Below, in pieces: positions 17,128-36,119 of a stretch of 40,000 nt of DNA; the stretch's first letter is position 1, and every line of letters starts with the position of its first letter. The position numbers were made by a program, and so were the translations under genes. The notes below the pieces were generated by a model, which was not told the origin of the DNA, made no database searches, and saw only the letters and a program-made list of their open reading frames with translations. This DNA is from Arsenophonus sp. aPb (lineage in GTDB: Bacteria > Pseudomonadota > Gammaproteobacteria > Enterobacterales > Enterobacteriaceae): positions 999,616-1,039,615 of the forward strand of contig NZ_CP123499.1 of the NCBI RefSeq assembly GCF_029873475.1, read 5' to 3'.

Positions 17128-17316
17128 TCAGAATAGGGCGGCGGCGTTTTTGACAATTAACTTATTTCCGCATCCTGGACAGTAGTTCATATCGTTTTCT
17201 TTCGGACCACCATCCATGAATTGAAATGTAAACCCGCAAGATGCTTCCCAGAAATAATCTGAATCAATCCAAGACCACTCACATTTTTTGTGATCTTTTT
17301 CGTCATTATCAGGCAT
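17128..17316 (-). CDS. small Cys-rich (zinc-ribbon-like) protein, 62 aa from MPDNDEKDH
   Basis: Has C..W...SCGF...YCPGCGNKL. The ATG at 17316 overlaps the stop of the N-like gene by 8 nt. Confidence 0.5.
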   Translation of the reverse strand: MPDNDEKDHKKCEWSWIDSDYFWEASCGFTFQFMDGGPKENDMNYCPGCGNKLIVKNAAALF

Positions 17317-17686
17317 TAGCGCTAATTCCAAACTGTGTTTTAGGCTTGCTGTTAAAACGTTTGGTGCTGTACATAGCAGTAGTTGGCATACAACAGTTAT
17401 CAAACGTATCTTTAACTTTTTTCTCAACATTTCCCTTAAACTGAACGATTAAATCAACGATAACATTTACCCATGTGTTAATTTTTTTACGTTTTGTGGT
17501 CAACTCTTTTTGAACACTGTTTTTTATGCCAAAGGCTTTATCGATAATGCTTTCAAGAAATTTTCTTTTAGAACGGCGGATATTTTCTTCAAGACGACGG
17601 ATCATCATTAAACGACCGCGCTTTTCATAACGACGCATTTTTGAGTTAGTACGACCGGTTCTGGGTAAGTAAATGATTGTTGCCAT
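17309..17686 (-). CDS. N-like transcription antiterminator (arginine-rich N-terminus)
   Basis: MATIIYLPRTGRTNSKMRRYEKRGRLMMIRRLEENIRRSKRKFLESIIDKAFG resembles P22 gp24 as I recall it (MTVITYGKSTFAGNAKTRRHERRRKLAIERDTICNIIDSIFG). Strong GGAG RBS. It sits left of pL. Confidence 0.55.
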   Translation of the reverse strand: MATIIYLPRTGRTNSKMRRYEKRGRLMMIRRLEENIRRSKRKFLESIIDKAFGIKNSVQKELTTKRKKINTWVNVIVDLIVQFKGNVEKKVKDTFDNCCMPTTAMYSTKRFNSKPKTQFGISANA

Positions 17687-17952
17687 AAATTCTCCGCTTG
17701 TAGATTAGATGCCGTCTTTCCGGCTGTCATCACTCCCACTGTTACACCGGTATTTCTCTCGTAATACTCAGCCGTTACTCGATTGCGATACCCTAACTAT
17801 TAGGTCACCCGTTAAGGGAGGGAGTGAACCCACCCATCAGTTCGAAAATGGCACCTGCTTTTGTATACCGCTCAGGTGGCGCGGTTCCTTGCTTTCCACA
17901 GTCAAGGAAAATTGATATAGTTGTAATTCCACAGTCAAAATAAGGAAATAAA
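17687..17952 (-). other. ORF-free, G+C-elevated leader upstream of the N-like gene (candidate nutL / structured RNA)
   Basis: No credible ORF. The minus-strand hairpin UUCC-UUGACUGU-GGAA (17894-17909) resembles the nutR hairpin. Mutually exclusive stems ACCGC/GCGGU and CACCUG/CAGGUG are present. Confidence 0.35.
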
Positions 17953-18231
17953 ATGGCAGACTTTACTGTTCGTGTAGAATTACATGGTGCAAATGCTGAT
18001 GATTACGTATTACTCCATGACAAGATGCAAGCAAAAGGATATTTCAAAGAAATCATCCATTCAGATGGAAAAAGATATAAATTGCCCATGGCTGAATATA
18101 TAACTACTAAAAATAAAGCAGCATCTGATATATGCAGAGAAGTTGTAAATATAGCATCTGAGGTTAAAAAATATCCTGATGTGCTAGTTACAAAATCAGA
18201 AACCAGAGCTTGGTCTCTAAGTATCGCTTGA
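17953..18231 (+). CDS. hypothetical 92-aa protein, antisense to the pL transcript
   Basis: AGGAA RBS. Its promoter region carries two TTCCACAGTCAA repeats (17894-17905, 17927-17938). Confidence 0.65.
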   Translation: MADFTVRVELHGANADDYVLLHDKMQAKGYFKEIIHSDGKRYKLPMAEYITTKNKAASDICREVVNIASEVKKYPDVLVTKSETRAWSLSIA

Positions 18232-18414
18232 ACCAAATTCAGGTAATTTTTCTTCGCTTTCTAGTTCCACAAATGCTTTTCTTATTTTGTGGGCTAGAAA
18301 GGTAACCACATCGTCATCGAGAACAAATACTTGTTGATACTTAATACGCAATAATTCAGCTAAAACTTCCCGTGCTTTTTCTTGCGATTGTTCGCTTAAC
18401 TCTTCAAACTTCAT
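18217..18414 (-). CDS. hypothetical acidic 65-aa protein
   Basis: Strong AAGGAGAGG RBS. It is the first ORF downstream of pL, and its 3' end overlaps the 17953 gene by 15 bp. Confidence 0.65.
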   Translation of the reverse strand: MKFEELSEQSQEKAREVLAELLRIKYQQVFVLDDDVVTFLAHKIRKAFVELESEEKLPEFGSSDT

Positions 18415-18980
18415 AACCTCTCCTTGAATAAATAAGTTTTAGCGATGTGTGACAGGTAACCTCTCCTGCTCAGTGCCGCGGTGTTTTTAATCATAGCCGA
18501 CCGTTCCATCAACGTATCTTTGGCCTTAGATAGCATATCCTTATGTTCGCTTAGGACGTTTAGGCTGCTTATCTTGTCCCGACCGTTTGACGATTGTCAT
18601 TCGTCATTCACACATCCCAAAACTTACTTGCTTGGCGCTACACTCTCGTAGTAGCCAACGCTCATGCCCTTGAGTCTATGTCGCCTCAGCCGCTAATAAC
18701 CGGTGAGAGTCTGGCTTTCTCTCTGCATGCTTTACCGGCGCACCTTCTTCTTTAATTAACCCTAACTAGCGTGCGTTGAAGTTTGCACCTTCATCTAGCT
18801 CTCAAGGAGACTCGGGGCTACTTCATGACAGTAGCTTGCAAGTTGCCCATCACTTAATTCACCATGATTAATATCTCCGTAGATGAAAACTTAACTACTA
18901 AATATTTTCAGGTAGTTCAAAACTAGGTGAAAATAAGAATTAACAGAGTATTAATCTATCAACTTGATATTGCCTCTCCA
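18415..18980 (-). other. ~570-nt ORF-free, G+C-elevated transcribed leader (candidate structured ncRNA)
   Basis: A hand count of seven 60-nt lines (18421-18840) gives about 47% G+C, against about 28-33% in two lines of the adjacent cassette. No ORF of 60 codons or more on either strand. Many local stems, e.g. UGACGA-7nt-UCGUCA, CCGGU...ACCGG enclosing GAGAG...CUCUC, and the long-range pair GAUGUGUGA/UCACACAUC. Confidence 0.35.
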
Positions 18981-18988
18981 CAAGAGCG
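18981..18988 (-). promoter_or_regulatory. boxA-like element (CGCTCTTG) about 30 nt downstream of pL
   Basis: 7/8 match to lambda boxA CGCTCTTA. No convincing boxB follows it. Confidence 0.3.
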
Positions 18989-19025
18989 GAGCATTCGTTT
19001 TTGTACTTCTGTGTTGATAGAGTTA

Positions 19026-19054
19026 ATTATCACTGATGGAGGTTTTATTGTCAA
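19026..19054 (-). promoter_or_regulatory. pL promoter
   Basis: The minus strand reads TTGACA-17 nt-GATAAT (-35 at 19049-19054, -10 at 19026-19031) and overlaps operator-like sites. Confidence 0.6.
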
Positions 19055-19180: not shown

Positions 19181-19537
19181 TTAAAATTTGGGTATGATAG
19201 GTAGATTCTCTATATTGAATCCTGACATATTTAGCAGGTTTACAATATACGTTCTAATATAAGGATAAGCTAATCGATGAAAGTTAATCTCAGCCATAAA
19301 ATCATTTAATTTACTACTTGAAATTTCTTTTTTAAATTTTAGGAAAAAGTTGTATTTGAAAGATAATTCTAATGTGTCAGCAATTAATAGTACTGTTTCC
19401 ATGGTTGCTTTAATGTTTTTTTTATCTTTCTGATCAATAAAGTAAAACGATGTTATAATTATGTTGCTTTTAGTATGAGATGTATTTTCTTCAAGCTTAA
19501 TCTCTGAAACGTTTGCTTTAGTTATTGTAAATTCCAT
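19181..19537 (-). CDS. SecB-like chaperone (118 aa)
   Basis: The N-terminus FTITKANVSEIKLEE resembles SecB FQIQRIYTKDISFEA. The C-terminus AYPYIRTYIVNLLNMSGFNIENLPIIPKF resembles SecB [28 protein letters not shown]. GAGG RBS. Confidence 0.6.
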   Translation of the reverse strand: MEFTITKANVSEIKLEENTSHTKSNIIITSFYFIDQKDKKNIKATMETVLLIADTLELSFKYNFFLKFKKEISSSKLNDFMAEINFHRLAYPYIRTYIVNLLNMSGFNIENLPIIPKF

Positions 19538-19544
19538 TTAAACC

Positions 19545-19775
19545 TCAAAGAGACATTCTCATAGTGTTATGAGTAACAGATTGACATTCAATCCAATGGT
19601 GAACTTCTTGCTTAATTGAAGATGATTTAACGTTAATCGTAATAGAGGTATTGCTTTGATCTAATTGATTGCTATCAGCAATTCCTGCACTAACAAGTTC
19701 AGATAATAACTCATTTCTACTCATTGATTTCAGACGAGCAATAGATTCTTTTGCTAGTTGCATTTGGCTTTTCAT
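19545..19775 (-). CDS. 76-aa protein, candidate antitoxin of the cassette
   Basis: ATGA overlap with the upstream gene, and a strong GGGAGGG SD inside that gene's 3' end. No recognised domain. Confidence 0.6.
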   Translation of the reverse strand: MKSQMQLAKESIARLKSMSRNELLSELVSAGIADSNQLDQSNTSITINVKSSSIKQEVHHWIECQSVTHNTMRMSL

Positions 19776-20344
19776 ATCACCCTCCCTCGTTGTACAACTG
19801 TCAATGAATTTTTGTCAATAGAACGTAATGGCTCCCTTATGCTTATAATTGTACAATTTTGAATCCTAGAGTTGTATATATTTTTTCTTGACCACAGATC
19901 AAGCTTGATATATTCACTCCTAATAATAGCATCACAACCTATTGCTTTTGCTATATAGTTGCATACCTCACAATCATTCTTGAGTGATTTTTCGAATGAT
20001 TTAGTTGATGAGATGTTATTTTTCTTCATAATACCAATTAGTTCATCTCTATAGTAATTAAATACTTTTTTCCCTTCTATAGAATCCAGGTTTAGTGGGT
20101 TATTTATACTAATATTAGCTTTAATTACAGAAAATTGTGTATATTTATAACGTTTTCTAATTTTATCGTATGAATGTCTTTTAGCCCAACACGAAGCATT
20201 ATGTTCTGGATCGCTAACTCCATCGATAAAAAAATAAGCCCCAGTTCCTAGCCATTCATCTTCCTTTGTACTGACGCGAAAATTACCACTCAGAATCATA
20301 TCTTCATTTTCAGCATTTGTACCGTGATAACCTATTAATTCCAT
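19772..20344 (-). CDS. 190-aa protein with H-Y-E ADP-ribosyltransferase-like motifs (candidate toxin; possibly DUF3990-like)
   Basis: IGYHGT (res 4-9; compare ExoA VGYHGT and DT SYHGT), GTGAYFF (res 33-39), RSEYI (res 142-146; compare DT SVEYI). Weak RBS. Confidence 0.55.
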   Translation of the reverse strand: MELIGYHGTNAENEDMILSGNFRVSTKEDEWLGTGAYFFIDGVSDPEHNASCWAKRHSYDKIRKRYKYTQFSVIKANISINNPLNLDSIEGKKVFNYYRDELIGIMKKNNISSTKSFEKSLKNDCEVCNYIAKAIGCDAIIRSEYIKLDLWSRKNIYNSRIQNCTIISIREPLRSIDKNSLTVVQRGRVI

Positions 20345-20407: not shown

Positions 20408-20869
20408 TCACGATGCTCTTTTGGATTTTTTCTCTTTTTCTTTTAAAAACTCAGCTATCTCGTCTATGTGTTTCTTTTTGTTAATAATTGCTTTGATAAT
20501 GTCTTCTTGATCCTTTTCAGTAATGTTATTGAAGAGATCTAAGAAAATTTTGTCTTTTCGTGAAATCTCAATAAAATCTTGTTTGTGATGATCTAGGTCG
20601 ACAGCTTGATACATTTTGACTATTTCTTTGGCAATAGTAGGACTGAAATCATTTACAGATACTTTCAGAAGTTTTGCTAAAGCAACAGCATTTCGTAAAT
20701 TTAATGCATTTATTCCATTGAAAAGAGAATTAACAGCACTTTGTACAATGCCTAAATGATCAGCAACTACTGCTTGAGATAAGCCCAATTCCTTTTTTTT
20801 GGCGTTATATATAGCCTTTAATCGCTTAGCGTCTGCGAGCTGTTCCGCATTTAATGGTTTCTTTTTCAT
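20408..20869 (-). CDS. cI: CI-like prophage repressor lacking an S24 autocleavage domain (153 aa from MKKKPLN)
   Basis: The N-terminal ~95 aa closely parallel the lambda CI NTD. The C-terminal ~60 aa are charged and helical, with no S24 motifs. The ORF-track start at 20986 would run through pR and the operators. Confidence 0.9.
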
Positions 20870-20880
20870 AAAAAAAATTT

Positions 20881-20944
20881 TATCACCAAACGGGATAATT
20901 CCCAACCTCCTGCGGTGTTGACAATGAAATCTCTCAAGGTGATA
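20881..20944. promoter_or_regulatory. oR operators (three 17-mers, centres 23-24 bp apart)
   Basis: TATCACCAAACGGGATA (20881-20897), AACCTCCTGCGGTGTTG (20904-20920) and AATCTCTCAAGGTGATA (20928-20944). The last matches lambda OR1 TACCTCTGGCGGTGATA at 12/17. Confidence 0.6.
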
Positions 20945-20946
20945 AT
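20918..20946 (+). promoter_or_regulatory. pR promoter
   Basis: TTGACA (20918-20923)-17 nt-GATAAT (20941-20946), followed by the AAGGAG RBS of cro. Confidence 0.7.
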
Positions 20947-20970
20947 GAATAAGCACCAAAGGAGATTGAA

Positions 20971-21174
20971 ATGAAACAATTAACACTAGCTGAATATGTA
21001 AATATTCACGGACAAGAAAAAACAGCTAAAACTTTTGGGATTTATCAAAGCGCTATTAATAAAGCCATTCATTCTAAAAGAAAAATTACAGTTTTTATTT
21101 ATGAGGATGGAAAAGTAGAGGCCAAAGAATTAAAGCCATTTCCATCTCAGCGTCCTAACAAAAAATTAAATTAA
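20971..21174 (+). CDS. cro: Cro repressor
   Basis: [56 protein letters not shown] parallels lambda Cro [56 protein letters not shown]. Confidence 0.92.
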
Positions 21175-35408: not shown

Positions 35409-36119
35409 ATGATGACATTAAGGTATCAGTTAAGCAAAGAAGAATTTGATTCATTAAGTGATGAGCAAAAAGTGTTATATAAAGTATCTGGCGATAATTA
35501 CCAGATGCACATTGAAGGTCTACCTGAATTTCCTGACGTTTCAGGACTGCAAAAGAAAGTAAATGAGCTGCTTTCCGAGAAAAAAGCAGAGCAGGAGAAG
35601 CGACGTCAGGCCGAAGAGGCGGCAAAAAAAGCCGCAGAAGAGCAGGCAAGAAAAAACGGGGATATTGCCGCACTGGAAAAAAGCTGGTCAGAAAAGCTTG
35701 TCTCCCGTGAAAATGAATTACTGAAGCAGATTGAAGAAAAAGATACAAATTTAAGAACGTTACTGGTTGATAATGTTGCTCAATCTTTAGCGGCCAAACT
35801 GGCCGGTGACAGTGCTGAATTACTTTTACCCCATATTAAATCCAGGCTGACAGTAGAAGAAGGTAAAACCCGTATTATTGATGCAGAAGGAAAACCCTCT
35901 GCGGCAACCCTTGATGATTTAGAAAAAGAAATGCGTAGCAACAGGTTATTTGCACCTGTTGTTATTGGAAGTAAGGCGACTGGAACAACCCGAGGTGAAC
36001 CGCGCCATACCACTACTGGGGGTGGTGGTAAAATCTGGAAGGATTATACGGAAGCTGAACGCATTCGTATTTTCGAAGAAAATCCGGCGGAATTTAAACG
36101 CCTGGCCGAAACACAATAG
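35409..36119 (+). CDS. scaffolding protein (start moved to the ATG at 35409)
   Basis: A charged helical protein located between the MuF and capsid genes. The ORF-track TTG at 35379 is only 12 nt past the terminator stem (it sits in the trailing T-rich tract), and a GAGG RBS precedes 35409. Confidence 0.65.
   Translation: MMTLRYQLSKEEFDSLSDEQKVLYKVSGDNYQMHIEGLPEFPDVSGLQKKVNELLSEKKAEQEKRRQAEEAAKKAAEEQARKNGDIAALEKSWSEKLVSRENELLKQIEEKDTNLRTLLVDNVAQSLAAKLAGDSAELLLPHIKSRLTVEEGKTRIIDAEGKPSAATLDDLEKEMRSNRLFAPVVIGSKATGTTRGEPRHTTTGGGGKIWKDYTEAERIRIFEENPAEFKRLAETQ

Follow-up and report, generated by a model that had tools for sequence, protein, structure and literature searches.

The window analysed here is a 40,000-nucleotide (nt) stretch of the genome of Arsenophonus sp. 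aPb, and the element in question is a gap of about 600 nt at positions 18415-19018, read on the minus strand behind the early-left promoter (pL) of a lambdoid prophage. We conclude that the gap is, almost surely, an untranslated leader of the pL operon made of three parts: an A/T-rich 5' stretch, a structured RNA module of 261 nt, and a homologue of the long helix of the lambda N leader. It is near-certain that the module represents an undescribed and uncatalogued RNA family of temperate enterobacterial phages and some conjugative plasmids. Regarding its function, our tentative reading, to which we give a probability of roughly 0.35-0.4, is that the module acts in cis on its own transcript, as a putative ribosome-docking leader device heading long antiterminated operons.

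The composite leader

The promoter and the parts of the leader, in the direction of transcription, are as follows.

19026-19054, minus strand: pL-like sigma-70 promoter within lambda-like operator sequence, assigned on its 11/12 score and its cI/Cro flanks
18887-19018, minus strand: A/T-rich 5' leader, 31.7% G+C, with a boxA-like octamer inside
18626-18886, minus strand: structured RNA module, member of covariance model R1 (169.9 bits, E-value 2e-54), full length (model positions 1-253)
18608-18629, minus strand: 5' strand of the long helix, AAGUAAGUUUUGGGAUGUGUGA, from a 21-pair fold and lambda homology
18453-18607, minus strand: variable interior with the hairpins UGACGA/UCGUCA and UAUCU/AGAUA and two AACGGUCGG repeats, not conserved
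18430-18452, minus strand: 3' strand of the long helix, UCACACAUCGCUAAAACUUAUUU, from the fold and lambda homology
18217-18425, minus strand: Shine-Dalgarno (SD) sequence AAGGAGAGG (18425-18417) and open reading frame (ORF) for an acidic protein of 65 amino acids (18414-18217; phrog_26625, function unknown), at the position of lambda N

The -35 and -10 hexamers lie on the minus strand at 19054-19026 (TTGACA-17-GATAAT) and agree with the consensus at 11 of 12 positions. On one side of this site are the genes for a cI-like repressor (20408-20986, minus strand) and its Cro-like partner (20971-21174, plus strand), and on the other are leftward genes, among them one for an N-like antiterminator (phrog_271, 17309-17686); the site was therefore identified as the early-left promoter of a lambdoid prophage. 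A sequence-only reading of this DNA had already proposed the promoter, a gap without any ORF of 60 codons or more, and an elevated G+C content, and all three proposals hold: ORFs with a start codon that overlap 18415-19018 reach 56 amino acids (aa) at most, the longest stop-free stretch has 63 codons, and the G+C content of 18421-18840 is 47.4%, the values for the whole window and for the CmdTAC-type cassette at 19181-20344 being 36.7% and 30.2%, respectively. Its interpretation of the G+C island as a structured minus-strand RNA transcribed from pL is supported by the test that it had itself suggested, as homologous prophage regions show both conservation and covariation. The picture of one large RNA over about 600 nt is not supported: the leader is a three-part mosaic, and the conserved family covers 261 nt only.

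Fold and covariation of the module

Model R1 was built after an alignment of 52 copies with less than 90% identity, and a later model-based alignment comprises 68 copies. In the latter, 97.3% of the cells are standard pairs and 18 of the 27 pairs have changed on both sides. Compensatory cells number 126, compared with 17.7 in column shuffles and 9-27 when the 3' partners are slid by 1-3 columns, and compensatory changes were obvious already in the first nine aligned sequences. About nine helices make up the fold of the module. A three-way junction (CCC/GGG, pair C83-G121) and a small GNRA hairpin, H2, were added from a mutual-information scan; pair C83-G121 is standard in 100% of the copies and occurs as three pair types. 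Aligned to R1, the Arsenophonus copy has no non-standard pair, and H3, H6 (outer and inner parts), H8 and H9 are all present and paired. The elements of the fold in this copy, from 5' to 3', are listed below.

18840-18855, minus strand: candidate hairpin H1 (AAGU-8 nt-ACUU), weak, 4 base pairs (bp); the 5' arm takes the last two bases of the stop codon of a small ORF described below and the 3' arm overlaps the 5' strand of P1
18842-18845, minus strand: 5' strand (CAAC) of the long-range closing helix P1, with its partner GUUG at 18656-18659
18817-18835, minus strand: hairpin H3, GCUAC-UGUCAUGAA-GUAGC; 6/6 pairs changed on both sides, 96.4% of cells paired
18758-18816, minus strand: three-way junction, CCC (18816-18814) with GGG (18762-18760), enclosing H4 and an extended H5; covariation of C83-G121
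18810-18800, minus strand: H4, UCUC-CUU-GAGA, inside the junction
18800-18764, minus strand: extended H5, inside the junction
18700-18738, minus strand: helix H6, outer CCGG/CCGG, inner GAGAG/CUCUC, loop with conserved GCCAGA; 5/5 inner pairs changed on both sides
18661-18674, minus strand: hairpin H8, CUCA-AGGGCA-UGAG, near-invariant; 99.6% of cells paired, with UCCA/UGGG in the distant copy L134
18637-18655, minus strand: hairpin H9, GCUAC-UACGAGAGU-GUAGC, 3' end of the module; 3/5 pairs changed on both sides

The motifs that the sequence-only reading had listed for the gap were all at the positions given for them, and those that fall within the module, namely the CCGGU...ACCGG stem around GAGAG...CUCUC (18738-18700) and the two GCUAC/GUAGC hairpins (18835/18821 and 18655/18641), proved to be helices of the family with covariation support. 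Helix H4 illustrates the variation: the Arsenophonus stem UCUC/GAGA corresponds to UCGC/GCGA in the majority of copies and to UACCC/GGGUA in L026. P1, which closes the fold, reads CGC/GCG in enteric copies and CAAC/GUUG in the Arsenophonus lineage, both sides having changed together, and it is the divergent insect-symbiont copy that, judged from the alignment, contributes the compensatory change for this putative helix. The enteric equivalent of H1, GCGG-AUAGA-CCGC, is nearly invariant, and the overlap of its 3' arm with the 5' strand of P1 is found in both the enteric and the Arsenophonus versions. Two additions are seen in the Arsenophonus copy: H5 is lengthened by a further hairpin, and H6 has a 4-nt insertion.

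Three other pairings were considered and rejected. Pairing of the SD of the module with the conserved GCUCC before H6 shows no covariation, since the GCGCC/GUGCC subfamily retains GGAG(G). A role of the H3 loop (GUCAUGA) in mimicking an anticodon or in pairing with the AUG is contradicted by the variation of the loop (CAU, AAU, AGU, CGU) beside a fixed AUG, with no mutual-information signal. A long-range GAGUC/GACUC pairing, proposed by RNAalifold from nine sequences, uses a UC that belongs to the locally covarying H4.

Variation in the extent of the module was also observed. In 19 of 98 copies (L092, L033, L030 and others) an extra conserved long hairpin lies 20-75 nt after H9, with compensatory changes of its own (outer GCAUUA/UAAUGC or CCAUUA/UAAUGG), and it may be an optional tenth helix. 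The divergent copies L133 (G090, 320-555) and L142 (G322, 1501-1688) apparently lack the middle domain H6-H8 and keep the small ORF, H3, the junction and H9; these may represent a natural short form.

A start-stop frame at the 5' end

The most distinctive feature of the module, which the sequence-only reading had not noticed, is a minimal ORF (mini-ORF) with its ribosome-binding site at the 5' end.

18875-18878, minus strand: SD sequence GGAG, 9 nt before the start of the mini-ORF
18854-18865, minus strand: mini-ORF AUG GUG AAU UAA (Met-Val-Asn-stop), from the sequence and the family column

A start codon (ATG, TTG or GTG) occupies the same alignment column in 66 of the 68 copies, the frame that follows has at most three sense codons in 57 of these 66, and an SD-like 4-mer precedes it in 61, counts that are anchored on that column and come from related copies, so that they are not independent events. 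For comparison, other ATGs within the element lead into an equally short frame in 68 of 279 cases. The spacing from SD to start codon is 6-9 nt across copies. The encoded residues vary (MVN in Arsenophonus; MVH, MKQ, MHQ, MKH or M-stop elsewhere), as does the last sense codon (AAU, CAC, CAA, CAG, AAG or none), and the mini-ORF is retained even in the remotest copies, which come from other families of the order. As read from the alignment, therefore, the conserved trait is the starting and stopping of translation and not the peptide, and we infer that the mini-ORF is translated.

The module as a protein-coding sequence was rejected, as no frame is conserved on either strand. A decayed protein gene or a hidden small one, or an RNA partner of the neighbouring CmdTAC cassette, is a very remote explanation of the gap. 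Antisense stop-free stretches reach 85 codons in some copies, and Klebsiella phage RothC is annotated with antisense hypothetical proteins, but the open stretches fall in different columns and frames from copy to copy and the helix insertions are not multiples of three. The cassette is adjacent to the gap, and the sequence-only reading had thought of its RNA component; nevertheless a terminator-like hairpin and pL itself stand between the two, with the cassette on the upstream side. Moreover, in ten annotated contexts no CmdTAC-type cassette accompanies the module (0/10), which lies downstream of a repressor, RexAB or Q in five and before the pilus operon in three plasmids. An RNA of a defence system in general (CmdTAC partner, type III antitoxin or retron-like) was likewise discarded, as there is no constant linkage to protein genes and no tandem repeats were seen. 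The gap in the Arsenophonus genome is best annotated as a composite leader, without a link to the CmdTAC cassette.

Spread and status of the family

Enteric copies score 190-270 bits with R1, against 169.9 for the Arsenophonus copy, which is thus a divergent member; both signature sequences of the family, CACCGGUUA and CUCAAGGGCAUGAGCG, are exact in it. It is the sole copy, as no further one was found in the Arsenophonus genome. A weak R1 match at 35812-36037 on the plus strand (11.3 bits, rough E-value 0.005) lies inside a 246-aa ORF and was regarded as noise. A second, degenerate copy in the G+C-rich island 17687-17952 before N was suggested by a recurring loop, UACGAGAG, and by GUUAGGGU, and was dropped when R1 with its filters off gave negative scores only.

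A permissive blastn comparison of the gap with deposited phage genomes gave matches in unannotated non-coding gaps only, co-directional with the flanking genes. The phages are mEp213, mEp237, two Stx2c phages, Hafnia phage yong1, Klebsiella phage RothC, Providencia phage PSTCR7lys and siphovirus vB_EcoS-733R5, and altogether about 15 of 50,697 deposited phage records carry the module. With an exact pattern made of the two invariant blocks of the family, at least 120 matches were obtained in viral contigs, 22 in 72,556 plasmid records, and 42 in species-representative genomes. The latter are mostly Enterobacterales, chiefly of the genera Kluyvera, Xenorhabdus, Citrobacter, Pseudocitrobacter, Morganella, Enterobacter, Tatumella and Pectobacterium. 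Four pattern matches have unexpected labels, Vagococcus (L173) and metagenome-assembled genomes of an Alphaproteobacterium (L179), Bacillales (L184) and Rhodanobacteraceae (L188), and may reflect contamination or mis-binning. Among sampled genomes, R1 detected the module in 9 of 150 others of the same GTDB family (150 genera in all) and in 2 of 150 others across the order, both of them divergent copies.

No catalogue consulted covers this RNA. The Rfam comparison that the sequence-only reading had recommended matched no Rfam 15 family: nothing reached the gathering scores in the window, and a permissive search (E-value up to 10) gave nothing in the core. On nine loci with enteric-type copies, Rfam 15 likewise gave nothing on the module, only transfer RNAs (tRNAs) and one isrJ upstream. 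No tRNA or transfer-messenger RNA was found in the window, no annotated feature lies beneath the module matches in RefSeq E. coli genomes, and no published description of the RNA was found in the literature, its signature sequences included.

The module could also be a selfish passenger of no use to the phage, the lambda-type leader helix being then the only working part of the gap. Its absence from lambda, its rarity in phage records and its patchy presence in the family genomes would agree with this. We nevertheless consider it improbable, given the purifying selection that maintains both sequence and structure in copies from Escherichia, Klebsiella, Hafnia, Providencia, Xenorhabdus and Arsenophonus and from plasmids, and the retention of a translatable mini-ORF despite codon variation; no transposase, repeats or target duplication were seen.

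The lambda-type helix and the 5' stretch

Directly after H9, a helix of 21 bp (18629-18608 with 18452-18430) encloses about 155 nt. It absorbs the 9-bp long-range pairing GAUGUGUGA/UCACACAUC (18616/18452) noticed earlier, and it drives the folding z score of the 3' part of the gap, -2.55. Direct alignment to lambda identified 18430-18629 (minus strand) as the homologue of the long helix of the lambda N leader. The paired strands are GCUUUGGGGUGUGUG and CACACACCACCAAAGC in lambda, where the SD and AUG of N come next, and GUUUUGGGAUGUGUGA and UCACACAUCGCUAAAAC in the window, where the SD AAGGAGAGG and the ATG of the 65-aa acidic ORF come next. The helix strands are conserved in two related genomes, one of which (G014) has a compensatory A-to-U and U-to-A change, and the interior is of different sequence in G014 and much shorter in the other (G016), according to blastn offsets and the alignment. 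The UGACGA/UCGUCA stem (18606/18593), the UAUCU/AGAUA stem (18532/18519) and the duplicated 9-mer (18497 and 18579) of the sequence-only reading are in this non-conserved interior, and no meaning is given to them.

The lambda N leader is 222 nt long, and its helix is cleaved by RNase III. By analogy, the long helix of the window may be cleaved by RNase III as well. The idea of a processing RNA suits the 3' part, where the helix is of the lambda N-leader type. The related statement that lambda has only a short nutL leader at this position needs correction, since the lambda leader consists of nutL and the same long helix. Lambda itself is without the module, and its helix begins 19 nt after boxB; relative to lambda, the module is, on the evidence of this alignment, an insertion between nutL and the helix. 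The TTTGGGR motif of the 5' helix strand also follows the module in 27 of 98 unique copies of the family.

In the 5' stretch, the boxA-like octamer CGCTCTTG (also given as CGCUCUUG) lies at 18988-18981 on the minus strand, shares 7 of 8 bases with lambda boxA, CGCUCUUA, and has a spacing to the promoter similar to that of lambda. No boxB-like hairpin was recognised between this octamer and the module, and blastn found no homologues of 18887-19018 outside the genus.

The N-like gene is not directly after the helix, lying about 0.75 kb further on. After the 65-aa gene there is a terminator-like hairpin with a U-run (18196-18220, minus strand), and a 92-aa gene (17953-18231, plus strand) is antisense. 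The hairpin and the opposing gene place the N-like gene behind a possible terminator, about 1.3 kb from pL.

Genomic settings

In Arsenophonus the module follows the pL start at a distance of 140 nt and shares its strand with the early-left genes, and all ten annotated copies examined have the same direction as the flanking genes on both sides. The copy of mEp213 precedes a second N gene, that of yong1 follows rexB, that of PSTCR7lys is downstream of cI, and those of mEp237 and RothC come after Q, the RothC copy just before tRNA genes. In viral contigs the upstream ORF frequently encodes a cI repressor or a Q antiterminator, the latter from two unrelated Pfam families; the downstream ORF is sometimes an N peptide and otherwise highly diverse. 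Clustering of the ORFs around about 100 copies gave 44 clusters upstream and 64 downstream (among 96). Copies also recur downstream of the lysis genes, with DUF2560 and the terminase behind them. Outside phages, MPF_I conjugative plasmids of Pantoea, Pectobacterium and Rahnella have full-length copies just upstream of a type IVB pilus operon, two of which score 192 and 248 bits with R1. Overall, the family prefers the first few hundred bases of long operons read by an antiterminated polymerase. A strict scan found a terminator-like hairpin within 100 nt upstream in 18 of 94 copies.

A subset of copies in late operons (L012, L024, L076, L089, L115 and others) is bracketed by two intrinsic terminators, tR' upstream and a strong GC hairpin with a T-run 10-14 nt after H9. 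At one late-operon copy, an Rfam isrJ match (L037, 2084-2162; 69.7 bits) abuts the 5' end of the module, an arrangement that points to isrJ-type RNAs as the short, terminated products of pR' in prophages of this kind. In T1-like viral contigs (L025, 6780-7070, minus strand), an Acb2/Tad1 hairpin domain (E-value 1.8e-16) is present in the ORF that immediately precedes the module; Acb2/Tad1 is a family of anti-CBASS/Thoeris sponges.

These settings bear on a second functional explanation, that of a stable trans-acting RNA. In that case the module would be excised from the pL transcript or a late one, in Arsenophonus from between the 5' leader and the RNase III-type helix. Its partner in the lytic cycle would belong to the host or to the phage, for instance the ribosome, a translation factor or a defence protein, and the role of the mini-ORF would be to dock the RNA on ribosomes or to stabilise it. 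A portable cassette before unrelated genes is what this explanation expects. So are the further conserved hairpin in 19 of 98 copies, the near-invariant loops AGGGCA and GCCAGA, the predicted expression from lytic promoters only, and the occurrence in accessory-gene slots, such as that of the RothC tRNA genes after Q and that of the Acb2/Tad1-like gene in T1-like contigs. Against it are the lack of an evident promoter of its own in the copies examined, the striking position at operon heads with a precise insertion between nutL and the N-leader helix, and the fact that no target or partner can be named. We regard the trans-acting RNA as doubtful in itself, and as nearly as likely as the cis leader device.

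A possible ribosome-gated leader device

The cis leader device that we prefer would work as follows. A ribosome would load onto the mini-ORF. As the stop codon abuts H1, the terminating ribosome would melt or cover this hairpin and so free its 3' arm, which could then pair with a segment about 190 nt downstream to form P1. P1 would close the compact multi-helix fold, and the folded, ribosome-bearing block at the operon head would protect or license the RNA downstream. Possible modes include a barrier to 5'-end decay or to Rho loading, and a put-like modification of elongation. The lambda-type helix would then control RNA processing and the translation of the first gene, like its counterpart in lambda. 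The switch between H1 and P1 is proposed because H1 starts at the stop codon, give or take one or two bases, and its 3' arm shares sequence with the 5' strand of P1; both the switch and any effect in cis are conjectures drawn from the alignment.

The mutual exclusion of H1 and P1 would also provide an expression platform for a sensor, either a riboswitch for a small ligand or a monitor of translation status that reads ribosome availability and sets downstream expression. A location in the 5' leader, the size and helix count of a large aptamer, and invariant junction nucleotides are in keeping with such a sensor. We hold it to be unlikely, since the downstream genes have no function in common, the module has its ribosome site at the 5' and not at the 3' end, and there is no conserved terminator or SD-sequestering platform after H9.

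Several observations weigh against the cis leader device. The downstream genes are widely different (the 64 clusters among 96), and 18 of 98 copies have a terminator-like hairpin at once downstream, just after H9; both fit a portable stand-alone RNA gene, and the latter also fits the trans-acting RNA. A link to NusG paralogues was rejected, a NusG-domain gene being upstream in only one of three plasmids. Single-sequence folding of the core is no better than that of shuffles (z = +1.04), and the minimum-energy fold misses the conserved fold by mispairing H3 with H9, because the two stems are identical (GCUAC/GUAGC) in the Arsenophonus copy. H1 and P1 are almost invariant, so that the switch draws on one lineage-specific double change, and the very high conservation of loops and junctions suggests a specific partner rather than a generic barrier. 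Finally, a polymerase modified by N or Q already resists termination, which makes an additional antiterminator seem redundant.

The fullest form of the cis proposal, a new type of ribosome-gated leader device in which start-stop translation would drive a compact fold at the head of horizontally acquired operons (pL, late and plasmid pilus operons) and so confer in cis resistance to Rho, RNase E scanning or termination, must be considered less likely than the general one and is put forward as speculation.

Comparison with known systems

The closest known system is the lambda N leader. Both leaders stand directly after a lambda-like pL, have a boxA-like octamer at a similar distance from the promoter, and share homologous helix strands, UUUGGGRUGUGUGA on the 5' side and CACACA..AAA on the 3' side, in a helix that ends a few bases before an SD and start codon. 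In contrast to lambda, the Arsenophonus leader has a 261-nt module before the helix, a different helix interior and no identified boxB, and the gene that follows encodes a 65-aa acidic protein instead of N.

HK022 putL and putR and the Bacillus subtilis EAR element are cis-acting processive antitermination RNAs that act on the polymerase that made them. Like the module, they are structured RNAs of long operons (phage or polysaccharide), located close to the 5' end. However, put is an RNA of about 70 nt with two hairpins and no ribosome site, whereas the module has about 250 nt, nine helices and an obligatory mini-ORF, and it occurs in phages having N and Q. HK022 is not among the blastn matches to the gap.

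The lambda bar minigenes, AUG AUA UAA behind an SD, are transcribed from pL and toxic when peptidyl-tRNA hydrolase is limiting. They share with the module a strong SD, a start and a stop after one to three codons in lambdoid early-left transcripts, but are not attached to a conserved structured RNA. A toxic minigene of the bar type was rejected for the module, because bar needs the rare AUA codon and the codons of the module vary freely, which makes the sequestering of one tRNA unlikely. The mgtL leader of mgtA and the classical attenuators also combine a short ORF with alternative pairings, between which the position of a ribosome could choose. Their leader ORFs have 8-30 codons and sense particular amino acids, whereas an ORF of one to three codons reports initiation and termination only, and the structured part of the module is far larger and conserved independently of the downstream gene.

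ROOL and GOLLD are large Rfam RNAs of prophages, of unknown function, often near tRNA genes and in Firmicutes. The module resembles them as a large, ornate and optional prophage RNA, with tRNA genes near it in RothC, but it matches neither by sequence nor by model, is smaller, occurs in Enterobacterales, and carries a mini-ORF with a ribosome site.

Antitermination and leader control are classically taught from lambda-like phages, yet an RNA of about 250 nt conserved over many genera stayed unannotated in them, inserted precisely between nutL and the helix of the N leader or immediately after tR'. Its presence before plasmid pilus operons and in Shiga-toxin-converting phages gives it a reach beyond phage biology. 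The obligatory start-stop frame suggests that the RNA needs a ribosome, which, if true, would be a new link of the first ribosome to RNA folding, stability or polymerase processivity. Should the ribosome-gated device be real, it would be an RNA-based counterpart of the N, Q and RfaH-type factors, dependent on the first ribosome.

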